Virus record (IMG/VR): IMGVR_UViG_3300033153_008203
Coordinates: 32,001 to 96,000 of that record
Source: a virus
DNA: 64,000 nt
Reading direction: 5' to 3' (one strand)
A program made the translations under genes and the position numbers. Below the pieces are notes generated by a model. It was not told where the DNA came from. It searched no databases and saw only the letters and a list, made by a program, of their open reading frames with translations. The stretch's first letter is position 1; each line of letters begins with the position of its first letter. Below, piece by piece: positions 12,314 to 64,000 of this stretch.

Positions 12314-13099
12314 TTATCTTCCTTCTAATATCTTTATTTTTCTAAATATCTTTTCCATGTGTACTGTTATTGTGTCTTTGCTGCGCCCTAGGCGTTTAGC
12401 TATTACAGTAATCCCTTCTCCTTTTGTGAAGTAAAGATATATTAGGAATCTTTGATATGGGGTAAGCTTTTTAAAAATCCACTTATCGCAGTGAATCACC
12501 CAGCAAAGCGATATGTCATCTGGATGAATCTTCTTGTCATCTAACAAGTCGCTTATGCTTTTGCTTTGCTGCTCAAAAAATAATGTGTTTTGTGACACTA
12601 GTTCTATAGCTACATCAGATTCTATAGCTTCTCCTTCATATTCAAGCTCTTCAATATGAAACAAAGGATCACGACTCAATCTACACAAATAGTTTCTCAG
12701 TTTCCAGCGAAAATATCTTGTAGCATAACGCATAAAGTTTATGCCTTCTCTCTTCTCATACTTGTCTAGCAACACTATGAAGATAACTACGTATTCATTA
12801 AAAAGATCTGAGTGATCATAAGCGAACAGAGTTGCAGCGATGTTTGCCTTGACTTCACTAAAGCTCTTCTTTGAACCGTCCTTAGTACTGACAAACAGTC
12901 TTAAGAACTCCTGAGCATCACGGTTGTCGTAAGCATTCTCTTTGCTTCCCTTAGTTAGCTTAACATACTTAAGAAGATAAGGAGTAAAAATATCTATGAG
13001 AAGAGAAAGAGCGGCAGGTTTTTTAGGCCCACCACTCTGATATGTTGCTACAATATCGTCTATCTCTTCTAGAGTATAGTCTGTCTTTTTAGATGCCAT
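12314..13099 (-). CDS. Phage-encoded sigma70-family sigma factor-like protein
   Basis: Region 2-like DLFNE...LLDKYE...INFMRYATRYFRWKLRNY; region 4 LTPYQRFLIYLYF..GEGITVIAKRLGRSKDTI. Confidence 0.75.
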   Translation of the reverse strand: MASKKTDYTLEEIDDIVATYQSGGPKKPAALSLLIDIFTPYLLKYVKLTKGSKENAYDNRDAQEFLRLFVSTKDGSKKSFSEVKANIAATLFAYDHSDLFNEYVVIFIVLLDKYEKREGINFMRYATRYFRWKLRNYLCRLSRDPLFHIEELEYEGEAIESDVAIELVSQNTLFFEQQSKSISDLLDDKKIHPDDISLCWVIHCDKWIFKKLTPYQRFLIYLYFTKGEGITVIAKRLGRSKDTITVHMEKIFRKIKILEGR

Positions 13100-13964
13100 C
13101 GTCTTTATCACAGTGTTCCCTGTACGAACAATACGCACAAGCCCAGTCTCCTATAGGATATTTCTCTGGGTTACGCTTGTAGTTCTCGTACTTGGTCTTG
13201 GCTACCTCACCACGTGCCTGTTGTATTTCAACTTGCTCTGGCGTATAGGTCTTAACAAAATCAGATGGAGGAAGCTGCTTCTTGTCTATATAGTCTTGAG
13301 CTAACCTATACCTGTCATGTATGTCTTCTACCGCGAATGCTTTAAAAAGTGTTCCGTCGATTCTTGGATAGTGTCTACCATCATCTTCAACAAGCTCAAT
13401 TATGAATTGCTTACGTTCTTTATTCTCAAGATTGAAGTAGAGCAACACTCCTTTTTTAACTTGATCCCTAAACTCATACAAATAGAGCATCAACTGTAGT
13501 AAGTGTGCCGGCTTAGCCTTTCCTTTAGTAGACTTGTTTCCAGCTACCTCTTTCCAGCTGTAGTAGCCCGCAGTGGTCTTGAGCTCTACTATAACAAGTT
13601 CTTTTGTAGCTGGGTCTTCTACGAGAACGTCTATTTCCCCTGAAAGCTTAATGTCGGTGTTAAAAAACTTTTGGCTATTTGCTCTCCAAATTCCTGCTTG
13701 TTTACACTGCTCAATGTACCAGTCTTCAAATATATTGCCGCAGGCAAACGTATAAAAAGTCCTAGTATTAAAAGGCTCTGGTGTAGCACCAGTACAGCGA
13801 TAATACATAGCTCTGATGCAGGCTCCTTTTATCATGTCTTCGTCATAACCAGTGTGGTGATACATAACGGAGGCCTGCGAGGGATACATGTTTGATCTAT
13901 TTCTATAGCTTTTAAGAATAGATTCTTTGCCAACATGATTGTCTATTAGTTTCATTAAATCCAT
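13089..13964 (-). CDS. Cas4-like/RecB-family exonuclease
   Basis: YPSQAS, GACIRAMYY, SGEIDVL, IVELKT, QLMLY, CAYCSYREHC. Confidence 0.85.
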   Translation of the reverse strand: MDLMKLIDNHVGKESILKSYRNRSNMYPSQASVMYHHTGYDEDMIKGACIRAMYYRCTGATPEPFNTRTFYTFACGNIFEDWYIEQCKQAGIWRANSQKFFNTDIKLSGEIDVLVEDPATKELVIVELKTTAGYYSWKEVAGNKSTKGKAKPAHLLQLMLYLYEFRDQVKKGVLLYFNLENKERKQFIIELVEDDGRHYPRIDGTLFKAFAVEDIHDRYRLAQDYIDKKQLPPSDFVKTYTPEQVEIQQARGEVAKTKYENYKRNPEKYPIGDWACAYCSYREHCDKDDGI

Positions 13965-31733: not shown

Positions 31734-32711
31734 TTATGGGCGATACGGAGAACCAAACGAAATACCAAATCTATAGACTCTTAGGTCTTCTTGTGTAGCG
31801 TCTATAAAAGATATATCAGTACCATTAAGTGCTGCCAAAGCTGGCGTGGATATTGATGCTATACTTAAACCGCTTCCTTCTTGAGTCCAATCACTTCCAT
31901 CAAACCTATAAACTCTAAGATTATCTGCTGTACTGTCAATAAAAGCTACATCGGTACTATTTAATGCAGCTAATGCTGGACTCGTTGTTCCTGATATACT
32001 TAAACTGTTTCCAATCTTATTCCAATCACTTCCATCAAACCTGTATGTCTCAAGATCCTCTTGTATGCAGGCAATATCAGTACTACTCAATGCTGTTAGT
32101 GCTGGTATTGTTGCTCCTGTTATTATAAGATCATTTCCAACCTGGGACCACGTACTACCGTTAAATCTATATACTCTTAACTCTTGATTGCTATCATCTA
32201 TAAATGCTACATCCGTTTCGCTAATAGTAGCTAATGCTGGATTTCCTATCGGAGTTACACTTAATCCACTCCCAACCAAACTCCATGTACTACCTCCAAA
32301 CCTATATACTCTTAAGCTTTCCAAAATAGTATCTACAAAAACCACATCGGTACTATTAAGTGCGCATATTGCTGGATACCCTATCCCTGAAAGCGTAAAA
32401 GCGCTCCCAACAAGAGCCCAAGTATTTCCGTCAAACCTGTAGGTTCTTAGCTCGTCATTATTAGAATCAACATAAGCTACATCTGTTCCATTGAGTGCAG
32501 CTATTGCCGATAATGACGTGCCAGTAATGTTAAAATCTGTCCCTATCTGAGCAGGAGAAGTCCATGTTATCGAAGATGAACCTGCACCAACAGTTGCACC
32601 TGCTTCAATACCATCAAGCTTTATTTTGTCTGCTGCAGCTAATGTCTCAGTGTCTAAAGTAATCGCTCCAAATTTTGGAGTTCCAGTACTTGTTAAGTCT
32701 TGTGTTGCCAT
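31734..32711 (-). CDS. Fibre-tip/receptor-binding protein with six ~46-aa beta-propeller repeats
   Basis: Repeat PALAALNSTDVAFID...LRVYRFDGS.W...G..L; fibre-like N-terminus DKIKLDGIEAGA. Confidence 0.75.
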   Translation of the reverse strand: MATQDLTSTGTPKFGAITLDTETLAAADKIKLDGIEAGATVGAGSSSITWTSPAQIGTDFNITGTSLSAIAALNGTDVAYVDSNNDELRTYRFDGNTWALVGSAFTLSGIGYPAICALNSTDVVFVDTILESLRVYRFGGSTWSLVGSGLSVTPIGNPALATISETDVAFIDDSNQELRVYRFNGSTWSQVGNDLIITGATIPALTALSSTDIACIQEDLETYRFDGSDWNKIGNSLSISGTTSPALAALNSTDVAFIDSTADNLRVYRFDGSDWTQEGSGLSIASISTPALAALNGTDISFIDATQEDLRVYRFGISFGSPYRP

Positions 32712-54037: not shown

Positions 54038-57000
54038 TTACTCCAATACCTCACTAAAGACTTCTGCTAGCCCTTCTTTTACATCTTCCCATGCATCTTC
54101 GACATCATCGAAAGCCTCACCGAACCTATCGCTATACGCCGACCACAACGTATTGTGTTTGAATCCTTCTATGCCAGCTACAAATGGAACCTTATTAACA
54201 ACAAGAGGCTTAATAATAATTGGCTGGCGCTCTTGAGTTTCTTTGATATAAACTGATCCAATCCCATATAACACAAATGCACCAACTGCGAAGATGCCAC
54301 GCTTGCCTACAGTTTTGTAAGCCACACCCAAGAGCCCCTTAAATCCTCCTCTAAGCTTTAGTGAAGCACCGCCTTTTGCTTTAAAATCAGTGACCTTGTT
54401 TAATAATGTAGACCCTGTTGCCGTAATCTTTGTTTTGGCACCAACTTTAGCTGCACCATATGCGTCCACTGTAGCCGTGCCTAGTCCTACTGACCTAATA
54501 TAGTCTCTTCCCTGCCAATACTTAATTAAACCGGTCTCAGCCAAATCAACTACTTTACCTTTACCGTATAACGAGTATATGTATCCAGTTTTTGCTGCAC
54601 TCTTTATTTTGTCTCCAGCAATTAGTCCTTTTAGAATACCTGTTTCAGTTGCGCCTTTTACTGCCTTTTCCACTACGCCTTTTGGTGTTGTACCTAACAC
54701 TGCTCCTATTACATGGGGTGCAGCCTTTACACCTGCAAACCTTAATTTTGACCAAAGAGCACCAGCTCCTAAGTACTTCAGATAGTTTATCTCTCCCATT
54801 GCTTGTTGCAATGCCATAGTTGCATACTCATTTCCACTAACACAAAGATCTGGAATTATCTCTGTTATAAATCCAGTCTCACTAGAGAAATGATGAACAA
54901 CTTGCTCTACTTCTACAGGACCATACATATCAGCTATGTCGTCAAAAACATGACACACATCATATGGTTTAATCTTTGGATTTCCTAGTACGGTAATGCT
55001 TCCAGTATACACGTCTTTTAGATGTCTTAGAAGTAATCCTTGTGCATATCTAGTAGCCATAAACTCTCCTTCACAGTTTGGCTGCTGAGAGAACAGTAGG
55101 TTTACATTCTCATCTCTAAGATCTTTATCAACTTTAAGAGTTTTCGTATTACCTGTCTTATAGTTAACGTTACCATACTCATCTATCTCTTTTACATCAT
55201 CGACATATTGCACAGTTACTGCATTATAAACGTCTGCATTTACCTTTATATCGTTTGATATGATATTAATCTTATCCGCCAAATAAAAATGCTTTCTGAA
55301 TGGAGTAAATCTGTCTCTAACTATACTTTTTCTTATATTGACAGCACTCTCATCTAGCTCTACTGGAATACCTGATATACCATCTCTCCTTCTGTTTTGA
55401 TTAAGCAGTGTTATTGCTGTACTATGTCCAGGCACTTCTTTCCTAAGCGGAGAATTCTTTTGATACTCTTCTATTGTCTCAGGCCTACTCCAATGTCCCA
55501 TATCTGGTACACCAAAAAACATCGACATCCTGTCGCCATATATTGTAGGCGAAGCAATCCATCCTGGATGTCTAAGCTCCATCTCCTTAAAGATGTCCCA
55601 TATGGTAGTATGAAATATCTTGTAGTCAAGATTAACATATCTTTCTACCATTCCGGTAGCAAATCCATGCATAAAAAGACCTGCAGTTACAACTCCACCT
55701 GTAGCCGCTCCAGCAGTAATTTTAGCAGATGCTACTAGTAGACCGCCATCCCAAAATGCTGTCTTAAATCCTTGTTTAATGCCTTCTGCTATGTTTAGAT
55801 CCCAAGCAGATCCTCCCCAATCAAAGAAATTGCTATCAGTTAAATACAACTCTATACTTGGAGGAAAAATATTATCATCTCTTGGATCTAGATTTGGACC
55901 ATACAACGAGTTTCCTGCTGACGCTATCTCTTCTTTACCTGTAAGAATAATATTAGCAATAGCTGTTTTCTTTCTAGTTCCAAAATGAACAACTTCTGGA
56001 GATTGCATTATCTTAGCAAGCAATCCACCTGTTATTTTCTCAGGTTCTTTTTTTATTTCTTCAGGCTCTTCTACTCCCTTTATCTGACTAACAAGCTCTG
56101 TTGCATAACTCTGACATACAATTGTAACTGCATGTGTTCCTCCAACCTCTACTATCTGTCCATTAAAAACAGTCTCCAATTTTCTCGGGTCATTAGAGTA
56201 TCCTAGTCTTACCTGTATTTTTTGTCCAGGTCTAAGTATTAATGCATCTATTGGATTCTCTGATAAAGACTCTTTGTCTGTTCCTCTTGTCTCATAGAAC
56301 TTGTCATCATCACCAGCATTATATTTTGCAACACTAGTTAGTTTTTGATTCAAGTTAGACATTGTCAATATGCACAAGTCTGCAGGAACTTTTCTGCTCC
56401 TGATTATTTTAATATCATGTACAGCATTATACCCAAAAAAGTCATCAAAGCTTAATCTTGGAATCAAATGAAACTCTTCGTCTTCATCTTCTTCAATAAA
56501 GTATACCTTGTATGTTGGATAAGCCCTGTTCATTGTAAAGATTTCATCGTCATGCGCTTGATCAACTAGTGTGTCAAGCATACCTTTTAGTCCAGTTTGA
56601 CTAAAATCATGAGACTTTACAAACTTTTCATTTATTTTAAAGTAGTCTGTCTTTGTACTGTTGCCGTACTCCTCTGGTCTCTCATGACCATTTGTAGCTG
56701 ATTCTCCAGACCAAACATCTGCTGGTCTCCATTCTTTCTGTACTGTCTCCATTTTCATTGCTATCTCTAATGACTCTTCAGCATACTGCTTAGTATCATT
56801 AAGTAGCTCATTAAAATACTCAGTGTGATTGTCTTCGCTCCAGAAATAATAGTCTGGATCGGTGTCTATAGGCTCATTTGTTATTGTAGTTGGCAAATTC
56901 AAGTCTCTATAACACTCAGTTAAAGACTGTGTTCTGAGCTTGTTTATTTCTTTATCTACACTCTTAAATTGATCTAACTGAAAAATCCCGTTTCCAAACA

Positions 57001-59152
57001 TACTCCAAAATTCATTAGATAATTTCTCATATATCTTTGCAGGTATTGCAATATTAATAGAGTCATCTGGTTCATAGTCCATAGCAGCTACACCTGCGCC
57101 TGCTGCACCTGGTTTTCTTTTTGCAACTATTTTTGGTTTCTTAGAGCTTATCAGATCTTTTACTTTTTTATCAAGGCCATAGATGCTACCCATATTATCA
57201 ACATAACCGCTATGCACATCTTCGTTAGCAATGTAGTCGTTTAATATGTCTACTACATTGTTTATGTGCGACTCAAGAACAGGACTATAGTCTTTTATGT
57301 GTGGACCGTACTTACTCTTTACACCTTGTGTTCTAGTGCCTGGGCTAAAAGTTGCTTGGGCGCCTTCTACTACAATATCTGCCCAGGACTTTTTAGTGCC
57401 TCCATAATCAGCGTAGGCTTCTTGCCCAATAAATTTGCTCATTGTCCCATGCTCAAGATACCTGTCTATCAACGAGAATGCCTTAGTTTTTATCTGCTTA
57501 TTGACCATAACATCTTCTCTAGAGAATCCTTCAGTAAACCACGGATCATACTGTGCAACACTAAAAACAAATATGTCCATATCTGGATTTCCAGGAACTG
57601 TTGATGATTCAGTATTATCTGTTAAACAATGCTCTAAACCAAAAAGTCTCGTAATCGGATTTACTATTGTGAGAACATTGTTATCTCTTATTCTTTTAAA
57701 TTCGTTCTCATTATTATGTGCTGTGTTAAGCGCCAACTTTATATTGTCTATTTGGTCGTTTCTTAATCCTTCTAATGCAAATATTGCTTTAGTATGTTTG
57801 CCACCCATATACTGAGTAGTAGGGTATTCATGTCCGACTATAGGGATAGAAGTAATATTGTGCGTCAATGACACATTAACACTGGTAACTGCAAGCCTAT
57901 CATTGCCTTGAACTATCGTCTGTGATGCCTGTATCTTCCATATGTTTCGTGCATTTGTAGGTAAGTAACCAGTGGACCTTTTCTGTTTAAGAAAATCAGT
58001 ATACACTCTCATGTAGTCTTCATTGTCAAGCGCATTTTTCTTGTCGCTTATTAGTGATCCAATAGAATGGTTTTCCCTGATTATCTCTTCTACGTTCTTT
58101 TTACCAAGCTCTCCTGTGTAGCTAAAGTGCCATGGTCTATCTTTGTTTGGAGTAAAACTATTATCTTGTGCTATTGCAACAAATGACTTATATCTTTTGT
58201 CATTATAGTACTTACTCTTAAGTTCTGTTATCCCAGTAGCGCTGCCAATAGAGTGTAATATCAAATCAAATGCTAATCCAGCCATATGCTCATTCATAAT
58301 AGCTTTATCTTCTGTCTCATCTGTATAAAAATCTATTCCGCCGGCAGGAATAAACATATTTGAAACAGGCATCCCTACTCCATACTTCCTTTTATAAAGC
58401 CTAGCAAGATGCTTAAAGGTACCAGTGGCATTTCTATGCATCTTTGAGCTAGGACCAATAATTCTAGTGTCGCTAGTATTAGAAGAGAACAATGTCTTTC
58501 CTATCTCTGCTACTTCACTTTCTGATAAGTGTCCAGCTGTTGGTGGCGTATCTCTCATGTAAGTATTATACGCTAGAGTTAAATCATTGTTTGCAGCAGT
58601 AATAGTTGGGATAGCATTTAGCACTCTTTGGAATCCCTTTTGATACAAGTTAGATTGAGTTGGGTCTATAACCTTTTGATACTTGTTTTTCTCATCAATT
58701 CTTGGTCCAGTAAGCTCATTTTTAAAAGAGAAGTCAGGAGAATAAGGAAGATAATTAAACAATGTCATATCAAAATTCGCGAACAACGATTCAGGTAGAT
58801 CAGGCACCGTATAAACACTAAGGTTACTAAGTGTTACAGCAAGATTAGATGACTCTGTTACTTCTGATAATGCTGCATTGGATATATATCTACTGCTAAT
58901 ATGAGCAAATGGCGACACCTTAAAGTGCGCTATCAAATGTCTTAGTTTATTGTTGATCTCATTTGTATTTGGAAACGCCATTTCTGCAGACACTACAAAT
59001 ATAGATCTGCCTGAACGAGCCCCTGTCGGAGTACTCTGTCTAAGGACATGATTGTACGCATTCATATTTCTCTTATGAAGCTGTATTCTAGTTGTATTTG
59101 CAGTCAGATCAAGACCGTTTAATACGAAATCATATGTTGGATTATCAGCCAT
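54038..59152 (-). CDS. Giant baseplate hub protein with embedded M15-like peptidoglycan peptidase domain
   Basis: EHMAGLAFD...RPWHFSY; hub motifs GQKIQVRLGY...VFNGQI and GSITVLGNPKIKPYD...VEQVVHHFS..GFITEI. Confidence 0.72.
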   Translation of the reverse strand: MADNPTYDFVLNGLDLTANTTRIQLHKRNMNAYNHVLRQSTPTGARSGRSIFVVSAEMAFPNTNEINNKLRHLIAHFKVSPFAHISSRYISNAALSEVTESSNLAVTLSNLSVYTVPDLPESLFANFDMTLFNYLPYSPDFSFKNELTGPRIDEKNKYQKVIDPTQSNLYQKGFQRVLNAIPTITAANNDLTLAYNTYMRDTPPTAGHLSESEVAEIGKTLFSSNTSDTRIIGPSSKMHRNATGTFKHLARLYKRKYGVGMPVSNMFIPAGGIDFYTDETEDKAIMNEHMAGLAFDLILHSIGSATGITELKSKYYNDKRYKSFVAIAQDNSFTPNKDRPWHFSYTGELGKKNVEEIIRENHSIGSLISDKKNALDNEDYMRVYTDFLKQKRSTGYLPTNARNIWKIQASQTIVQGNDRLAVTSVNVSLTHNITSIPIVGHEYPTTQYMGGKHTKAIFALEGLRNDQIDNIKLALNTAHNNENEFKRIRDNNVLTIVNPITRLFGLEHCLTDNTESSTVPGNPDMDIFVFSVAQYDPWFTEGFSREDVMVNKQIKTKAFSLIDRYLEHGTMSKFIGQEAYADYGGTKKSWADIVVEGAQATFSPGTRTQGVKSKYGPHIKDYSPVLESHINNVVDILNDYIANEDVHSGYVDNMGSIYGLDKKVKDLISSKKPKIVAKRKPGAAGAGVAAMDYEPDDSINIAIPAKIYEKLSNEFWSMFGNGIFQLDQFKSVDKEINKLRTQSLTECYRDLNLPTTITNEPIDTDPDYYFWSEDNHTEYFNELLNDTKQYAEESLEIAMKMETVQKEWRPADVWSGESATNGHERPEEYGNSTKTDYFKINEKFVKSHDFSQTGLKGMLDTLVDQAHDDEIFTMNRAYPTYKVYFIEEDEDEEFHLIPRLSFDDFFGYNAVHDIKIIRSRKVPADLCILTMSNLNQKLTSVAKYNAGDDDKFYETRGTDKESLSENPIDALILRPGQKIQVRLGYSNDPRKLETVFNGQIVEVGGTHAVTIVCQSYATELVSQIKGVEEPEEIKKEPEKITGGLLAKIMQSPEVVHFGTRKKTAIANIILTGKEEIASAGNSLYGPNLDPRDDNIFPPSIELYLTDSNFFDWGGSAWDLNIAEGIKQGFKTAFWDGGLLVASAKITAGAATGGVVTAGLFMHGFATGMVERYVNLDYKIFHTTIWDIFKEMELRHPGWIASPTIYGDRMSMFFGVPDMGHWSRPETIEEYQKNSPLRKEVPGHSTAITLLNQNRRRDGISGIPVELDESAVNIRKSIVRDRFTPFRKHFYLADKINIISNDIKVNADVYNAVTVQYVDDVKEIDEYGNVNYKTGNTKTLKVDKDLRDENVNLLFSQQPNCEGEFMATRYAQGLLLRHLKDVYTGSITVLGNPKIKPYDVCHVFDDIADMYGPVEVEQVVHHFSSETGFITEIIPDLCVSGNEYATMALQQAMGEINYLKYLGAGALWSKLRFAGVKAAPHVIGAVLGTTPKGVVEKAVKGATETGILKGLIAGDKIKSAAKTGYIYSLYGKGKVVDLAETGLIKYWQGRDYIRSVGLGTATVDAYGAAKVGAKTKITATGSTLLNKVTDFKAKGGASLKLRGGFKGLLGVAYKTVGKRGIFAVGAFVLYGIGSVYIKETQERQPIIIKPLVVNKVPFVAGIEGFKHNTLWSAYSDRFGEAFDDVEDAWEDVKEGLAEVFSEVLE

Positions 59153-59154
59153 TC

Positions 59155-62100
59155 TTAGCCCTCTATTAGTCTATCTATCATTTCAGCGGTTATTGTCCTT
59201 GAATTGTCATTTATATTAACGTTAACATTAGAAGGCATTTTCATTCTTTCCATTATTTTTTGGCTTATCTCATTATAGTCTACATTTGCAGATTCCCTAC
59301 CCCTAATTCTTACAACGCTTGACATAGGAGTTGTGTTTTGATCTACCATTGCCTTTGGCGTATGCTGCATAGCTTGTGGTGAACCTACTTGTCCAGCCTT
59401 TAATTGGCCTCCCTGTATACTCTCTGGATGTATATACTTAGGCTTAGCCTGAAAATTTAAGTCAGGTATAACCATCTCTCCTGCTGATCCTCGTGGAGGT
59501 CTTGATGGTGGTGCCATAATATTATGTCCGCCAAAAGGAGTCTCTTCTCTAGATTTTGCACCAAGATAAAAAAGTCCTCCCGCCAAAGCAGTTGCTGCTG
59601 CAACCATTGCTGTTCCTTTACCCATACCAGCAAATTGACCTTTCATCATAGTCTTCACATTAGCAGTAAGAGTTTCTACAGCAGAATATCCAGTTGCTCC
59701 TGATTTCATTGACAAAATAGGATCAGGCATCATAGCACCATGCATTGATCCGCCTGCTGCGTCTGCAGTTCTCAAGACTCGCATCGGATCACTTGCAAGC
59801 CTTAGTGCTGCTGCAGTAGTTGGTCCTTTGCGACCAATGTGCATAAATGCCTTTAGGTCTTCAGCTTTTACTGCTGAACCTTTCCTTGCCTTTAAAGATC
59901 TAGTAACTATTTCCTCGACATCTATTCCTTGTTCAGCAAGCTTACTCAAATCAAATCTTTTGCCTACCGCTTCAGATATTTGGCCTGCACCTTCTATTAT
60001 GCCTTCAGGACTCCTGGCACCACGAATAGCTTTCATTATTCTTTGCGACTCTCCAATCATTGCTTTAGCTTCTGCTGGAGTCATGTGCTTTGCAGATATG
60101 ATTTCCTGAGGAACATTTTCATACAATTGCTGTGCACCTGCTATTATTTTTTTATCTCCAGATGCAGCAGCGCTTTCAAGTATGTCTTCAAATGCAACAT
60201 CTAATGCTCCTATTTCAGATGTAACTGCCATCTTTAACTGTTCTCCTAGCTGACTGAATTCAACTGCTGCGGCACCAGATACAGCTCCTCGTTTTGCTCT
60301 ACTGAATATCGCTGCTGATTTTGCAAAGTCATCAAAGGTAGCAGTAAGCGTTTTGTGCTTTAGCATTTTTCTAGCAGTTTCTTGTTCCCTTTTATTCATG
60401 ACTGTTGTGACTATTACATTATCTCCATCATAGTCTCCTCTCAGCACTTTCATGACAGACTCGCTAGCTTCAAGCTGATGACCAAGTTCGTCAAGCTTAG
60501 AATCGTATCTTAGTCTAATTGGAAACGCACCTGTCTTACCTGTTATTGGATGTCTAGCTACTAAACCTTCAACAGCTTCTCCTCTTAAAAAGGCTTCACG
60601 CTGAGACTTTACAAATGCCTTATCGGTTGAGTCTGCCCACATCTTTTCCATAATATTGCGGCTTGCTTTAACCTCTGCTTCTCTTTCAATCCATCTTCCT
60701 GCTTCAGCAGAAGGAAATGGCCCTATGAATCCTGTAGCCTGACTCTGAACTCTCGTGTAAACAAAACCAGGAGTCTTGGCTTTACCTGCCGTAGCTCTAG
60801 CATATTGCGTAGAAAGCTCAATATCAAGATTCTTCATTGCAGCAGTAACGTCTTTCGCTGATTCCTTAGTCATTACAGCAGAAAGAAGTTCTGAGTATCT
60901 TTTAAGTGTTGATAGAGCCTCTCTTTTGCCAGCTTCACCAGGACGCGTTCCCATTCCAGTTACTTCAGTTATTGACGGCAAATACATATGCTTCTTAAGA
61001 CCGTATGTCTTTTGTTGCTCTTCTGTAAACTTTAGCAGCGTGCCTTCTTGACTCCATATTGTCTTGTCACTGGTTCGCCTAAGCATTGATCTATCAAGCT
61101 CCTGTGCACCAGCAAACTGTTGCTCTGTTAGCAGCTTAGAAAGGTTAGCGTCTCCAGCTACAGACAGCATTGCTTTTCTTAGTTCTGTTACAGCTCCGTA
61201 TGACTTGCCCAGTCTTCTTTGGCCTACAATCTCTGCGACTCCTTCTCCTGTAGGTCCTCCTAAACCGGCCTTCCATATTGCTCTTGTCTCAAATGATCCT
61301 TTTACCATCTCATGAGCACCAAGCTCTCCACCTGGAACAACCTGAGCTATACCAAATGCAAATGGGTTCCTTTTAATATATTCTAGTTCTTTTTCACTGA
61401 AATCTATAGCTCCAGACAGTATTGCACTGGATTCTTCTTTTATCTCTTTAGCATATGTGCCAAATACCATTCCAAACTCAACACCAGTTAAGCCATGCTT
61501 TCTTGACAATGCTAATAGCTTACGCTCAACACCATATGCTTGGCCTTGTACGTCAGAAAGATACTGTAATGGATCATCAGTAAACGCATTATTAACACCA
61601 GCTTGACTAAGGATATGTCTTAGCCCTGTTGTCATTTGATATTTTCTGGCTCTAGGATCTTTAAATAGTGCCTCATAATGCGTAAAAGCTTCTGGCTTAA
61701 TTCCTGTTCCTGAAACTTTTTGTGCATACTTAGCTAACATACTTGACTCTTGAGGCCTCAATACACTTTTTACTCCACCTTCTCCAAATACTTTTTGGGC
61801 TACGCCTCCTCTTACTTGTCTTTCTATCTCTACTGTTACGTAATCGGTGCCTGATGCCTTTTTTACACTCTTTATTATGTCTGTAATATCGTCACCAACG
61901 GTTTGAGATATTAGCTCATCTAAGTCTGATGTCTTTCCACCATATACAACCTCTCCTGCTGCAGTTGTTGTCTTTAGCAGCTCACGTCCCATACCTAGTC
62001 GTGCTCCTGCTGCCAACCTAACAGGTTTCCCTGTTGCTTGTGCTTCGACTATTTCTGGTGCCAAAGGAAGAATTCCAGAGCTCTCTAATATACGATACTT

Positions 62101-63588
62101 ACGTGTTGACTGAGTATTAAGCATTTCTGTAATCGTATCTGAAACTGCTATCTCTCCTTCTCTAACGCCAAGGTCCATCATGTCAGGCATATACAGCATT
62201 GGCATATTAAGGTCTCTTATATTGGCCATCTGTATTGCAGCTTCAGCTGTTACTGTCTTTCTTATTCCTCTTGCCTTCTCAAACATTCTTACACTCTGTA
62301 CTGCATCACTAGTAAGAGTTGTTTCAGGCCTTATAATATGAAGAGGTTTTCGCGCCCAACGTGTCTCTTCTCCAAAAGGAACAAGCTTAGTCAAATCTAC
62401 ACCACGCTGAAACGGATAGAACTGTCTACCACCTTCGGTTCTTATTATCTCTCCTTTTGGGCTATAGAATATGCCCGGTCTTGCTACTTGTTTCTCTATC
62501 CATGCTGGCAAATCTTCTGGAGCCATATCTTTTGGCAACTCTATATTGACTCTACTTGAACGCATTGTTTCCCAAACTCCAGAGACTCCAGTTTCAGGAC
62601 CAGCAGGCATAGCTTGAGGAAAAAAGTCCCCATACAGTTTTCTCATGTCTTTTAGATTGTCTTTTCCTTCCGCCTTAAAATGATGTAATCCAGCATCCCA
62701 CTTAGCAAGCAACCCATTCTTATTGACAAGGTCTTCTATAATGAACTCTCCAAAGTTTAATAATCTTCCCTTGGCTCCTTGACGCTCAAGAGTATCTACC
62801 TCTCCAAATATGTTAGATGCGAGAGAACTTACGGGCACACTAGAGGTCAATGGTATCTGCATTGTACGTCTTGCCCTATCAGCTCCAGTTGCCTTGCTTA
62901 TTCCGAACTGCATGACTGGTGCACCTGCGATCTCTTTAATACTAAAACCAGTGCTTACATCAAACTTATCAGGAAAGTTTTTACCTACAAGCTCTGAAAC
63001 TCTAGCATGTAGCTTAGTTGCATGTCCTTTGTGTGTGCTTCTATTAGTAATATCTAATACTTCTTCAGGTGCAAAGCTATATTCGGTTGTTAGTCTCTTA
63101 ACGTCTAAGTCGTCAACCATTGCAACTTGAGACCTTACATTCTTCATCAAAGATGTCCTTCCCATTCTTTGGGAAAGATTCTCAAGCTTCTGAACAAGTT
63201 CTCCAGAACCAACTGATGGAAGCCCATCAACCTCTAGCAACCCTTCGTTTCTCATTAGGTCTTGTACATCTGCAACACCTAAATGCCTAAAGGTCTGCAT
63301 TAAAGCATTACGAGTAGCATGCTCTAACTTGAAGCGCATATTCCTATCCCCTTTATTCTGAATCCTAATCAAGTCCTGAAGAATCTGCTGATTTACAGTC
63401 GTAGCTTTTACAAATGGCTCTTTGCTTCTAGGGTTAATCATGTTCTGAAGTCCCAGTCTGCCTTGACGAGACTTAAGCCTATATGGGTCTAAAGAATCTT
63501 CTACTGTCTTAAAGTTATACACGCCCTTAACATCACGAAGATGTTGCTTGAGACTTCTATTCTGTTTTTTTATCTTATTGTCTGACAT
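59155..63588 (-). CDS. Putative single-chain two-barrel (double-psi beta-barrel) RNA polymerase, probably virion-associated
   Basis: beta-like GVREGEIAVSD and KVFGEGGVKSV; beta'-like GKAKTPG, ARHPIT and GDYDGD; C-terminal hydrophobic helix; TAATG start at 63588. Confidence 0.75.
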   Translation of the reverse strand: MSDNKIKKQNRSLKQHLRDVKGVYNFKTVEDSLDPYRLKSRQGRLGLQNMINPRSKEPFVKATTVNQQILQDLIRIQNKGDRNMRFKLEHATRNALMQTFRHLGVADVQDLMRNEGLLEVDGLPSVGSGELVQKLENLSQRMGRTSLMKNVRSQVAMVDDLDVKRLTTEYSFAPEEVLDITNRSTHKGHATKLHARVSELVGKNFPDKFDVSTGFSIKEIAGAPVMQFGISKATGADRARRTMQIPLTSSVPVSSLASNIFGEVDTLERQGAKGRLLNFGEFIIEDLVNKNGLLAKWDAGLHHFKAEGKDNLKDMRKLYGDFFPQAMPAGPETGVSGVWETMRSSRVNIELPKDMAPEDLPAWIEKQVARPGIFYSPKGEIIRTEGGRQFYPFQRGVDLTKLVPFGEETRWARKPLHIIRPETTLTSDAVQSVRMFEKARGIRKTVTAEAAIQMANIRDLNMPMLYMPDMMDLGVREGEIAVSDTITEMLNTQSTRKYRILESSGILPLAPEIVEAQATGKPVRLAAGARLGMGRELLKTTTAAGEVVYGGKTSDLDELISQTVGDDITDIIKSVKKASGTDYVTVEIERQVRGGVAQKVFGEGGVKSVLRPQESSMLAKYAQKVSGTGIKPEAFTHYEALFKDPRARKYQMTTGLRHILSQAGVNNAFTDDPLQYLSDVQGQAYGVERKLLALSRKHGLTGVEFGMVFGTYAKEIKEESSAILSGAIDFSEKELEYIKRNPFAFGIAQVVPGGELGAHEMVKGSFETRAIWKAGLGGPTGEGVAEIVGQRRLGKSYGAVTELRKAMLSVAGDANLSKLLTEQQFAGAQELDRSMLRRTSDKTIWSQEGTLLKFTEEQQKTYGLKKHMYLPSITEVTGMGTRPGEAGKREALSTLKRYSELLSAVMTKESAKDVTAAMKNLDIELSTQYARATAGKAKTPGFVYTRVQSQATGFIGPFPSAEAGRWIEREAEVKASRNIMEKMWADSTDKAFVKSQREAFLRGEAVEGLVARHPITGKTGAFPIRLRYDSKLDELGHQLEASESVMKVLRGDYDGDNVIVTTVMNKREQETARKMLKHKTLTATFDDFAKSAAIFSRAKRGAVSGAAAVEFSQLGEQLKMAVTSEIGALDVAFEDILESAAASGDKKIIAGAQQLYENVPQEIISAKHMTPAEAKAMIGESQRIMKAIRGARSPEGIIEGAGQISEAVGKRFDLSKLAEQGIDVEEIVTRSLKARKGSAVKAEDLKAFMHIGRKGPTTAAALRLASDPMRVLRTADAAGGSMHGAMMPDPILSMKSGATGYSAVETLTANVKTMMKGQFAGMGKGTAMVAAATALAGGLFYLGAKSREETPFGGHNIMAPPSRPPRGSAGEMVIPDLNFQAKPKYIHPESIQGGQLKAGQVGSPQAMQHTPKAMVDQNTTPMSSVVRIRGRESANVDYNEISQKIMERMKMPSNVNVNINDNSRTITAEMIDRLIEG

Positions 63589-63998
63589 TAAATCCAACCT
63601 TCCTTAACAGCGTTCTCGAATCCAACCTGCAATGAATCCCTTGTTATATCAAGATCTATTATGTTTTGCGGGTCCTTCTTTAGAAACTTATCTACAGTAA
63701 TATTAACGTCTTCGACCCCGTAACTAGCTAAGATATCATGTAAAGCTGCTCTCATATCACCTGCTGACATATCACCTTCCATATGTGTGACCTGCTCGAT
63801 TGCATCTTCATCTATGTATGGTTTGTATGGAAGAGTCTTTTCTCTTGACTCCCAAAGATTAAAGTCATGCACATCTTTTCCTTCATTCTTTACCACAACA
63901 AACTTAATATCCTCTAAGTCTGTCTGTGGATGAAACCCTACGAAATCATTCCTAGGCAATGGATGACTTTTAAAGTAGTCTTCCAGCAATCTCTCACG
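63588..63998 (-). CDS. C-terminus of a large virion/tape-measure-region protein; 5' end outside the window
   Basis: Frame is open to the window edge; translationally coupled to the RNAP-like gene. Confidence 0.6.
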   Translation of the reverse strand, partial: RERLLEDYFKSHPLPRNDFVGFHPQTDLEDIKFVVVKNEGKDVHDFNLWESREKTLPYKPYIDEDAIEQVTHMEGDMSAGDMRAALHDILASYGVEDVNITVDKFLKKDPQNIIDLDITRDSLQVGFENAVKEGWI

Positions 63999-64000
63999 TT

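Follow-up and report, generated by a model that had tools for sequence, protein, structure and literature searches.

A predicted single-chain two-barrel RNA polymerase with a tape-measure-type C-terminus in the tail module of a contractile-tailed phage

Can the gene that occupies the tape-measure slot of a contractile-tailed phage encode an RNA polymerase (RNAP)? The question is raised by an open reading frame (ORF) at 59155-63588 of a 64,000-nucleotide stretch of viral DNA (the window; positions 32,001 to 96,000 of the IMG/VR record IMGVR_UViG_3300033153_008203, which is 145,069 bp long and estimated to be 75% complete). An earlier reading of the letters alone, called here the sequence-only reading, had noticed in this ORF short counterparts of both halves of the cellular RNAP active centre, and that observation is correct as written. 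Gene coordinates are given as window positions. On the evidence of its predicted structure, the gene product is a single chain that is related, very distantly, to cellular RNA polymerase, and by sequence comparison its last ~180 amino acids (aa) are homologous to the C-terminus of gp146, the tape measure of Bacillus phage 0305phi8-36. We propose that the product is a single-chain two-barrel RNAP on a tape-measure-type anchor and that it is likely to be packaged in the tail and injected.

An AlphaFold2 model was produced for aa 240-1300 from an alignment of 75 sequences of the protein family; model residue 1 is aa 240, and residues are numbered throughout from an upstream TTG codon, which gives 1480 aa, and not from the ATG. 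The model was compact, of mixed alpha/beta content and multi-domain, not a long helix, and was predicted with good confidence (mean predicted local distance difference test (pLDDT) 86.5, predicted TM-score (pTM) 0.85, with 955 of 1061 residues at a pLDDT of at least 70). A Foldseek search of the PDB returned 98 matches at E<=1e-3, led by bacterial beta', vaccinia Rpo132 and Rpo147, the AR9 non-virion RNAP (nvRNAP) and beta chains. When the top Foldseek chains were re-aligned, 968 of 994 reached a Z of at least 8, and the top 50 listed were all second-largest RNAP subunits. In a VIA-align search, which is independent of Foldseek, the N-terminal half of the model (residues 1-528) aligned to second-largest subunits at Z 13-15 over 390-410 residues. 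These included 8wat_p (Z 14.9, 409 aligned, root mean square deviation (rmsd) 4.7), 4c2m_B, the A135 subunit of Pol I (Z 14.1, 408 aligned), the second-largest subunit of African swine fever virus (Z 13.5) and the nvRNAP chains of AR9 (7s00_C, Z 13.4) and phiKZ (7ogp_C, Z 13.3). The following half aligned to largest subunits, among them 7ob9_A (Z 11.4, 369 aligned), 9mu7_A (Z 11.3), 2pmz_A (Z 11.3) and 6edt_D (Z 9.6). Within it, model residues 703-855 matched isolated double-psi beta-barrel (DPBB) domains at Z of about 8 and rmsd 2.0-2.5 (7dww_A, Z 8.1, rmsd 2.0; 7dbo_B, Z 8.0; VAT-N 1cz5_A, Z 7.7).

Single-chain enzymes matched across the whole span: QDE-1 (7y7p_A, Z 11.3, 473 aligned), P74-26 gp62 (8f5m_A, Z 10.9, 354 aligned, rmsd 4.2, model residues 97-1013), ZmRDR2 (Z 9.2) and P23-45 gp96 (8h2m_A, Z 8.9, 304 aligned, rmsd 3.9, with a second gp96 match at Z 8.5). 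As these enzymes match both halves in one alignment, the halves are predicted to be packed as in QDE-1, gp62, RDR2 and gp96. The model therefore has a beta-like barrel first and a beta'-like barrel after it, the order expected of a two-barrel enzyme, and the claim that counterparts of the second-largest and then the largest subunit occur in the right order is borne out. The check proposed with that claim, a structure prediction and fold search against RpoB/RpoC, QDE-1 and phage RNAPs, was likewise positive.

In two-barrel RNAPs a DxDxD triad binds Mg and the other barrel supplies two basic residues (PMC7824862). All five motifs named in the sequence-only reading were found in the ORF translation (Table 1), and their conservation was counted across 75 full-length family members, aligned at ~17% identity (mean column identity 19%). 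The three aspartates of GDYDGD, D1055, D1057 and D1059, are each kept in 75 of 75 sequences, but the glycine of the proposed DxDGD is not: position 4 is variable, with G in 25 and A in 33. Upstream of the triad, R1015 and P1017 are also kept in 75/75 and H1016 in 69/75. The gap from R1015-x-P1017 to DxDxD is 37 aa in the studied protein and 35-89 aa across the family, which fits the pattern [RK]xPx{20,100}DxDxD used to recognise two-barrel RNAPs (PMC10770324, Supplementary Data 4), and every full-length member has one DxDxD at the equivalent relative position. In the model RHP lies at the end of a strand and the Asp triad in a loop just before the next barrel strand.

The candidate counterpart from the other barrel is KVFGEGGVKSV. 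Both of its lysines are conserved (K602 73/75; K610 71/75, with Arg in a further 3), as is F604 (69/75), so the invariance that had been sought for the Asp and Lys residues largely held. The claim that the lysine spacing equals that of beta did not extend to the family, in which K-x7-K occurs in 4/75 sequences and K-x5-K is commoner (48/75). The two lysines sit on a hairpin formed by model strands 363-366 and 370-377, inside the beta-like half; on the model they could form the second barrel's basic pair, and they may face the Asp triad. The remaining two motifs fared less well. The beta-like LGVREGEIAVSD is present, but its EGE is only moderately kept (E480 43/75, G481 56/75, E482 43/75); this element, EGExxxS in the family, may be equivalent to NFEDS of beta. 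The beta'-like AGKAKTPGFVYTRV is present too, but the Arg of the family RG[RK]V strand (63/75) is replaced in it by Tyr.

Conservation was not confined to the motifs named beforehand. The invariant alignment columns are G535, Q654, P874, R1015, P1017, D1055, D1057 and D1059, and the columns kept in at least 90% of sequences include K602, F604, K610, K646, E770, R772, H1016, I1167, K1170, H1171 and D1464. After the catalytic barrel, where a bridge helix and trigger-loop base would be expected, come two long helices (model residues 877-907 and 910-928) and then I-S-[GA]-K-H, in which I1167 is kept in 73/75, K1170 in 74/75 and H1171 in 68/75. This motif lies within the stretch aligned to largest subunits, and K1170-H1171 may represent a trigger-loop-like basic pair. 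Conservation at this level of divergence indicates that the motif columns are functional residues and not chance matches in one sequence.

Table 1. Positions of the gene, its predicted parts and motifs, and its two neighbours (window positions unless marked; residues numbered from the TTG)
Feature	Position	Strand	Residues	Description
Whole gene	59155..63588	-	1477 aa from ATG at 63588	Single-chain two-barrel RNAP candidate plus tape-measure-type C-terminal module
Beta/Rpb2-like half	61297..62880	-	aa 240-767 (model 1-528)	Aligned by VIA-align to second-largest RNAP subunits
LGVREGEIAVSD	62137..62172	-	aa 476-487	Family consensus EGExxxS; strand start in beta-like barrel region; moderately conserved
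KVFGEGGVKSV	61762..61794	-	aa 602-612	Near-invariant lysines K602 and K610 on a beta-hairpin
Beta'/Rpb1-like half	59722..61152	-	aa 816-1292 (model 577-1053)	Aligned by VIA-align to largest subunits, Z 9.6-11.4
Catalytic double-psi beta-barrel (predicted)	60316..60774	-	aa 942-1094 (model 703-855)	Matches isolated DPBB domains
AGKAKTPGFVYTRV		-	aa 937-950	Contains VYTRVQS, first strand of the catalytic barrel
ARHPIT	60547..60555 (R1015-H1016-P1017)	-	aa 1014-1019	[RK]xP element ahead of the metal loop in two-barrel RNAPs
GDYDGD	60421..60438	-	aa 1054-1059	D1055-Y-D1057-G-D1059 (60421..60435), candidate Mg-binding triad
I1167-S-A-K1170-H1171	60085..60099	-	aa 1167-1171	Family consensus PISGKH; near-invariant; after two long helices
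C-terminal tape-measure-type module	59161..59706	-	aa 1298-1479	Ala/Gly-rich segment, Pro/Gln-rich linker, conserved terminal piece with D1464
Ala/Gly-rich hydrophobic segment	59557-59622	-	aa 1326-1347	Within the C-terminal module
Downstream neighbour	54038..59152	-	1704 aa	Giant baseplate hub / cell-wall hydrolase, corresponding to gp147 of 0305phi8-36
Upstream neighbour, 3' end	63588..64000 (contig 95588-100957)	-	1789 aa	Orthologue of 0305phi8-36 virion protein gp145

None of this could be read from sequence searches. A word-indexed homology search found 7 relatives only; when 1.84 billion cluster representatives were searched exhaustively with a profile, 82 were found, 33 of them at E<=1e-10, and the family as defined here is these 82 clusters at 50% identity. 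Family lengths are tightly clustered (median 1480 aa, nearly all 1430-1640 aa), which fits the expectation for an enzyme. The members looked up in annotation were all metagenomic proteins, nameless or 'hypothetical', and the family is unannotated. For the studied protein, Pfam gave only GH127 (E 0.0075, 15.8 bits against a cut-off of 24.9), which was taken as spurious, and PHROGs gave no real match. Profiles of 6 and of 75 sequences found only chance-level matches among PDB sequences (Sec15 and a calmodulin-like protein) and no RNAP chain; the set searched includes 8H2M and 8H2N. Megablast and tblastn searches of GenBank phages with the studied protein and a consensus-like member (P0075) gave no match, the family profile had no match at E<=10 in the whole genomes of 0305phi8-36, Moorella phage MTATph1 and Acinetobacter phage ME3, and a search of IMG/VR and GTDB genomes with the close-relative set returned no relatives. 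No cultured member of the sequence family was found in the phage-genome searches. A profile of the N-terminal 240 aa matched nothing, not even the studied protein itself, and this region is too variable to model by sequence. The profile PF05183 matched neither the polymerase protein nor, at E<=1, anything else in the contig, and a regular-expression and profile scan of the 145-kb contig for a second polymerase gave only chance expression matches in unrelated ORFs.

The link to the tail comes from the C-terminal module and from the position of the gene. A family profile of aa 1290-1480 matches aa 2377-2519 of 0305phi8-36 gp146 (E 1.5e-10), and in BLASTP aa 1424-1476 align to gp146 residues 2474-2523 (E 0.009). 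gp146 has 2537 aa, is annotated as a 'hypothetical tape measure protein' and was identified in virions by mass spectrometry. It lacks a DxDxD, and no similarity to the polymerase body could be detected in it. The same C-terminal profile did not match ME3 gp36 or MTATph1 CDS0027. D1464, in the conserved terminal piece, is near-invariant. No segment, including the Ala/Gly-rich one at aa 1326-1347, passed the Kyte-Doolittle transmembrane threshold of 1.6. A long tape with membrane and metallopeptidase domains was not seen, as only ~190 residues without a Pfam domain follow the polymerase, and nor was an extended alpha-helical tape-measure body, as aa 240-1300 are predicted to be compact and family lengths are near-constant. 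Predicted polymerase and tape-measure-type sequence share one polypeptide, whose gene occupies the tape-measure position: it follows the tail tube and the chaperone-sized genes and precedes the baseplate hub.

The gene appears to be translated together with its neighbours. The ORF is stop-free over 59155..63597 on the minus strand (1480 codons counted from the TTG at 63597), but all close homologues begin at M4, and the true start is therefore taken to be the ATG at 63588, the coordinate given in the sequence-only reading. In the sequence TAATG this ATG shares bases with the upstream gene's stop codon, and it is preceded by the Shine-Dalgarno sequence AAGGAAGG, and the polymerase stop is followed by the start of the hub gene as TAA-ga-ATG, with 2 bases between. 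The two junctions imply translational coupling to both neighbours, as the sequence-only reading had claimed. The whole protein is predicted to be ~160 kDa and its folded enzyme part ~120 kDa.

The phage itself is uncultured, contractile-tailed and a distant relative of 0305phi8-36, with a sheath 32% identical to ORF139 of that phage. The minus-strand gene order is major capsid protein, sheath (642 aa), three tube paralogues, genes of 149 and 204 aa, the 1789-aa giant, the polymerase gene, the 1704-aa hub/hydrolase giant, three small genes and a baseplate wedge. In 0305phi8-36 the order is shared: chaperones gp143 and gp144, gp145 (virion), the tape measure gp146 (virion) and the hub/endolysin gp147. 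Because it is flanked by a gp145-like giant and the hub, the polymerase gene is the positional counterpart of gp146. The same tail-module slot is occupied in four contexts, those of the studied phage and of three distant family members (~17% identity). The downstream neighbour matches phrog_20474 (E 7.6e-62) and phrog_4930, a baseplate hub family. The upstream giant matches gp145 (phmmer E 3.8e-52) in an alignment that skips aa 497-870, and ME3 gp35 (E 2e-74); aa ~497-870 correspond to a LAGLIDADG homing-endonuclease intein (C...HN|S). It is also orthologous to MTATph1 CDS0026, has an N-terminal hydrophobic helix at aa 48-66, and gave no usable match in an ESM Atlas look-up. On the P0063 contig, which carries a distant relative, the gp145-like and hub genes both have intein-type Pfam matches. 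The three tail-tube paralogues (249, 241 and 212 aa; contig 102148-104332, minus strand) are consecutive after the sheath, and all match phrog_9206, a family labelled 'major head protein' whose counterpart in 0305phi8-36 is the tail tube.

In function and architecture the nearest precedent is gp96 of the Thermus phage P23-45, a tape-measure-fused two-barrel RNAP that is present in virions and transcribes pre-early genes (PMC10770324). Its structures are PDB 8H2M and 8H2N (Chaban et al. 2024), and it also occurs in P74-26, G20c and TSP4. Both proteins are single-chain two-barrel enzymes, on prediction in the present case, with R/KxP...DxDxD, a tape-measure position, tape-measure sequence on the C-terminal side and no sequence similarity to cellular RNAPs. 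They differ in that gp96 has 5002 aa, a long tape and metallopeptidase and membrane domains and belongs to a non-contractile-tailed thermophilic siphovirus, whereas the studied protein has 1480 aa, only a ~180-aa tape-measure-type end and a contractile-tailed phage as its carrier. Sequence homology to gp96 was not detected with the 6- or the 75-sequence profile, and the similarity is structural only. gp96 has been described as a flat, clamp-less enzyme, and the beta-like half modelled here is closer to cellular second-largest subunits (Z 14-15) than to gp96.

Other known enzymes share part of this design. P23-45 gp64 and its P74-26 counterpart gp62 (8F5M) are single-chain two-barrel phage RNAPs that match the whole chain, but they have ~590 aa, are non-virion proteins encoded among early genes and lack a tail context and a tape-measure module. 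QDE-1, RDR and YonO-like enzymes (PF05183) likewise have a beta-like and then a beta'-like barrel in one chain with a DbDGD-type triad, and the DYDGD of the studied protein is as in QDE-1; YonO and gp99, however, are not tail-module genes, and PF05183 does not match the studied protein. gp99 is a YonO-like RNAP encoded by 0305phi8-36 (PMC7824862), near the right terminal repeat (NC_009760.1 208026-211682; PF05183 E 1.1e-20; RSP...DTDGD). 0305phi8-36 thus has a YonO-like RNAP and a polymerase-free tape measure, whereas the studied contig, with 75% covered, has a predicted polymerase in the tape-measure slot and no PF05183; gp146 shares with the studied protein the slot between the gp145-like giant and the hub and a homologous C-terminal ~150 aa. 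The multisubunit RNAPs (beta/beta', Rpb2/Rpb1, phiKZ/AR9) are the closest structural neighbours of each half. Polymerase injection is the strategy that the phiKZ and AR9 virion RNAPs would have in common with the studied protein, but those enzymes have several subunits, are packaged in the head and are recognisable by sequence, in contrast to a single chain in a tail gene context. gp66 of phi14:2 (6VR4) is a virion-delivered single-chain two-barrel RNAP for early genes with a DFDxD-type motif (10.1101/2020.03.07.982082); it has 2180 aa, belongs to the QDE-1-like subclass and a podovirus-like phage, and has no sequence similarity to the studied protein. 6VR4 was not among the PDB matches listed, which has no bearing either way, and crAss-like proteins were among the weaker fold matches of the model in BFVD. 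The sequence-only reading had called a very divergent RNAP unexpected in such a myophage: the divergence stands, but 0305phi8-36 already encodes gp99, and gp96 is a precedent.

A possible relative is found in a cultured phage. Acinetobacter phage vB_AbaM_ME3 carries in the same slot gp36, a 'hypothetical' protein of 1603 aa (KU935715.1 33172-37983). Its family of 11 members has invariant R1174-E-P1176, a gap of 40 aa and then D1217-x-D-x-D1221 (REP...DHDQD), and K632-x6-K639 within KxFSVGSK. An hhalign comparison of the two families gave a weak match, collinear over the beta-like barrel (probability 68.6%, E 4.6e-5), which pairs RRPxQxxR, EGE and KxFGxxK with counterparts in the gp36 family. 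In BFVD the model matched A0A172Q021_2 (E 6.2e-8). This entry is a half-length fragment of an ME3 protein, probably gp36, to half of which its length of 802 residues corresponds. AlphaFold2 of the gp36 family from 11 sequences was poor (pLDDT 61.8, pTM 0.39), with only helical hairpins at Z<8 in VIA-align; it was uninformative and does not count against relatedness. In our view gp36 is probably the same kind of protein, very distantly related. A second ME3 protein, A0A172Q0S6 (KU935715.1 224453-226849, minus strand; 798 aa), also matched the model by fold (E 1.9e-7) and has neither a DxDxD nor similarity to 0305phi8-36 gp99. The top BFVD match was a 'minor tail protein' of uncultured Siphoviridae sp. 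ctnpt50 (E 2.8e-10, TMq 0.43, 1165 aligned columns), and matches were also seen to a 'PLD phosphodiesterase domain-containing protein' of Microcystis phage Ma-LMM01 and to an uncharacterised MaMV-DC protein. Judged by predicted fold, these three may be further unrecognised two-barrel polymerases. Neither ME3 nor the Microcystis phages are listed in a 2024 survey of viral two-barrel RNAPs.

How might such a protein work? In the scheme that we propose, the beta/Rpb2-like half (aa ~240-767) would supply K602 and K610, the beta'/Rpb1-like half (aa ~816-1292) would supply R1015-x-P1017, the D1055/D1057/D1059 triad and the K1170-H1171 element, and the two halves would jointly make up a single active centre for polymerising nucleoside triphosphates on a DNA template. 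The polymerase would be made with its tail neighbours from one late operon and built into the tail, with the C-terminus fixed at or close to the hub or the tube lumen; sheath contraction would expel it, and the first genes of the incoming DNA would be transcribed independently of the host polymerase. Tail packaging is likely because of the tape-measure-type C-terminus, the tape-measure slot and the late-operon co-production, and is also favoured because a polymerase made late from a tail operon has little other use in early infection. That the protein has an active two-barrel nucleotide polymerase fold is, on the model, very probable; delivery in the virion is held with less assurance, its chances being somewhat better than even. 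Support is direct for the fold, as predicted, and for motif conservation, gene position, coupled translation and C-terminal homology, and we infer catalysis, the type of template, packaging and timing.

Several points weigh against this proposal. Pfam, PHROG and PDB profile searches do not tie the family to any known RNAP, and the homology therefore rests on predicted structure and short motifs. The glycine of DxDGD and the beta-type lysine spacing are not conserved in the family, and the tape-measure homology is limited to the last ~150-180 residues. No candidate promoter set was identified for the predicted enzyme, and the contig is ~75% complete, so that it may lack part of the transcription apparatus. 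Finally, a folded globular enzyme of ~120 kDa does not fit the lumen of a tail tube. A bolder reading, which we regard as rather doubtful, is that an RNAP has taken the place of the tape-measure gene in this myovirus lineage and itself does the tape-measure job. The enzyme would lie unfolded or extended inside the tube, with its tape-measure-type C-terminus as the anchor; on contraction it would be threaded out, and it would refold at the membrane and transcribe the DNA as it enters. If so, the near-constant length of 1430-1640 aa would reflect a fixed tail length plus the constraints of an enzyme, and ME3 gp36 would be a testable member of a wider group.

Another possibility is that the protein is a true two-barrel RNAP that is not packaged, a late-operon product acting in the infected cell on late genes or for the next round, with a C-terminal module put to some other use such as membrane or replisome anchoring. 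In the related phage 0305phi8-36, gp99 is not flagged as a virion protein, packaging has never been observed for the family and a folded 1480-aa globule would be hard to fit in a tail tube; nevertheless, a polymerase made only late could act in early transcription only if the particle carried it over, the slot between chaperones and hub is strictly conserved in distant relatives, both gene junctions are translationally coupled and the C-terminal module is common to a proven virion tape measure, and we consider this explanation improbable. Slightly less probable again is a structural tail or ejection protein in which the two-barrel fold has been kept or exapted for something other than DNA-templated transcription, for instance as a primase-like or RNA-templated polymerase, a PolD-like DNA polymerase or a nucleic-acid clamp that aids DNA entry. 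The RNA-dependent QDE-1 and RDR2 are whole-chain matches, the DNA polymerase PolD is also a two-barrel enzyme (PMC10770324), the sequence does not reveal template or product, and the DxDGD glycine and lysine spacing deviate from cellular RNAPs. Every residue class needed for nucleotidyl transfer is kept across a very diverged family, however, which argues for catalysis; the best structural matches, which extend over ~400 residues and not just the barrels, are to subunits of DNA-dependent RNAPs; and the characterised phage analogues gp96, gp66 and YonO are all DNA-dependent RNAPs (PMC10770324, PMC5467207). An ordinary tape measure with RNAP-like motifs by chance would account for the slot, for the annotation of the 0305phi8-36 positional counterpart as a tape measure and for the C-terminal hydrophobic segment and gp146 homology. 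It is contradicted by the AlphaFold2 fold, a confidently predicted globular alpha/beta body over aa 240-1300 in place of an extended helix, by the RNAP matches of VIA-align and Foldseek, nearly all of the latter upheld on re-alignment, and by motifs conserved in 75 widely diverged sequences of near-constant length, and is very improbable indeed.

Two further observations concern transcription in this phage. The sequence-only reading had described it as encoding both DnaE and a sigma factor. DnaE was found, but the contig has no Sigma70_r2 match; the 274-aa ORF that this reading had called sigma-like (12314-13138, minus strand) shows only sub-threshold C-terminal helix-turn-helix matches (HTH_38 25.7 bits, Sigma70_r4 18.6 bits), and a phage sigma factor is not established. 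The 13-mer GTTTAATAYTATA has five exact copies in the contig, on both strands (window 3123, 12301 and 31706, minus; contig 24059, minus, and 30526, plus), and each copy precedes an ATG by 4-16 bases. A promoter role, serving a polymerase or transcription factor specific to the phage, is conceivable, and five copies are too few to judge.

To our knowledge, injected tail-linked cellular-type RNAPs have been proven only in P23-45 and its close relatives, which are siphoviruses. The tail-linked RNAP proposed here would be a second, sequence-unrelated version of such an enzyme, now in contractile-tailed phages. The idea of a tail-linked two-barrel RNAP is not without precedent in gp96 (PMC10770324). 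In full-text searches, no account of an RNAP in the tail module of myoviruses came up. With 82 clusters missed by annotation pipelines, host-independent early transcription may be far commoner in large myoviruses than their annotation implies. The predicted structure also suggests that cellular-type RNAP cores can diverge past all sequence detection while keeping ~10 residues, which is relevant to surveys of RNAP evolution. A physical puzzle is raised as well, the storage and delivery of a ~160-kDa enzyme via a contractile tail, and the probable distant counterpart in the cultured phage ME3 opens the way to laboratory access.

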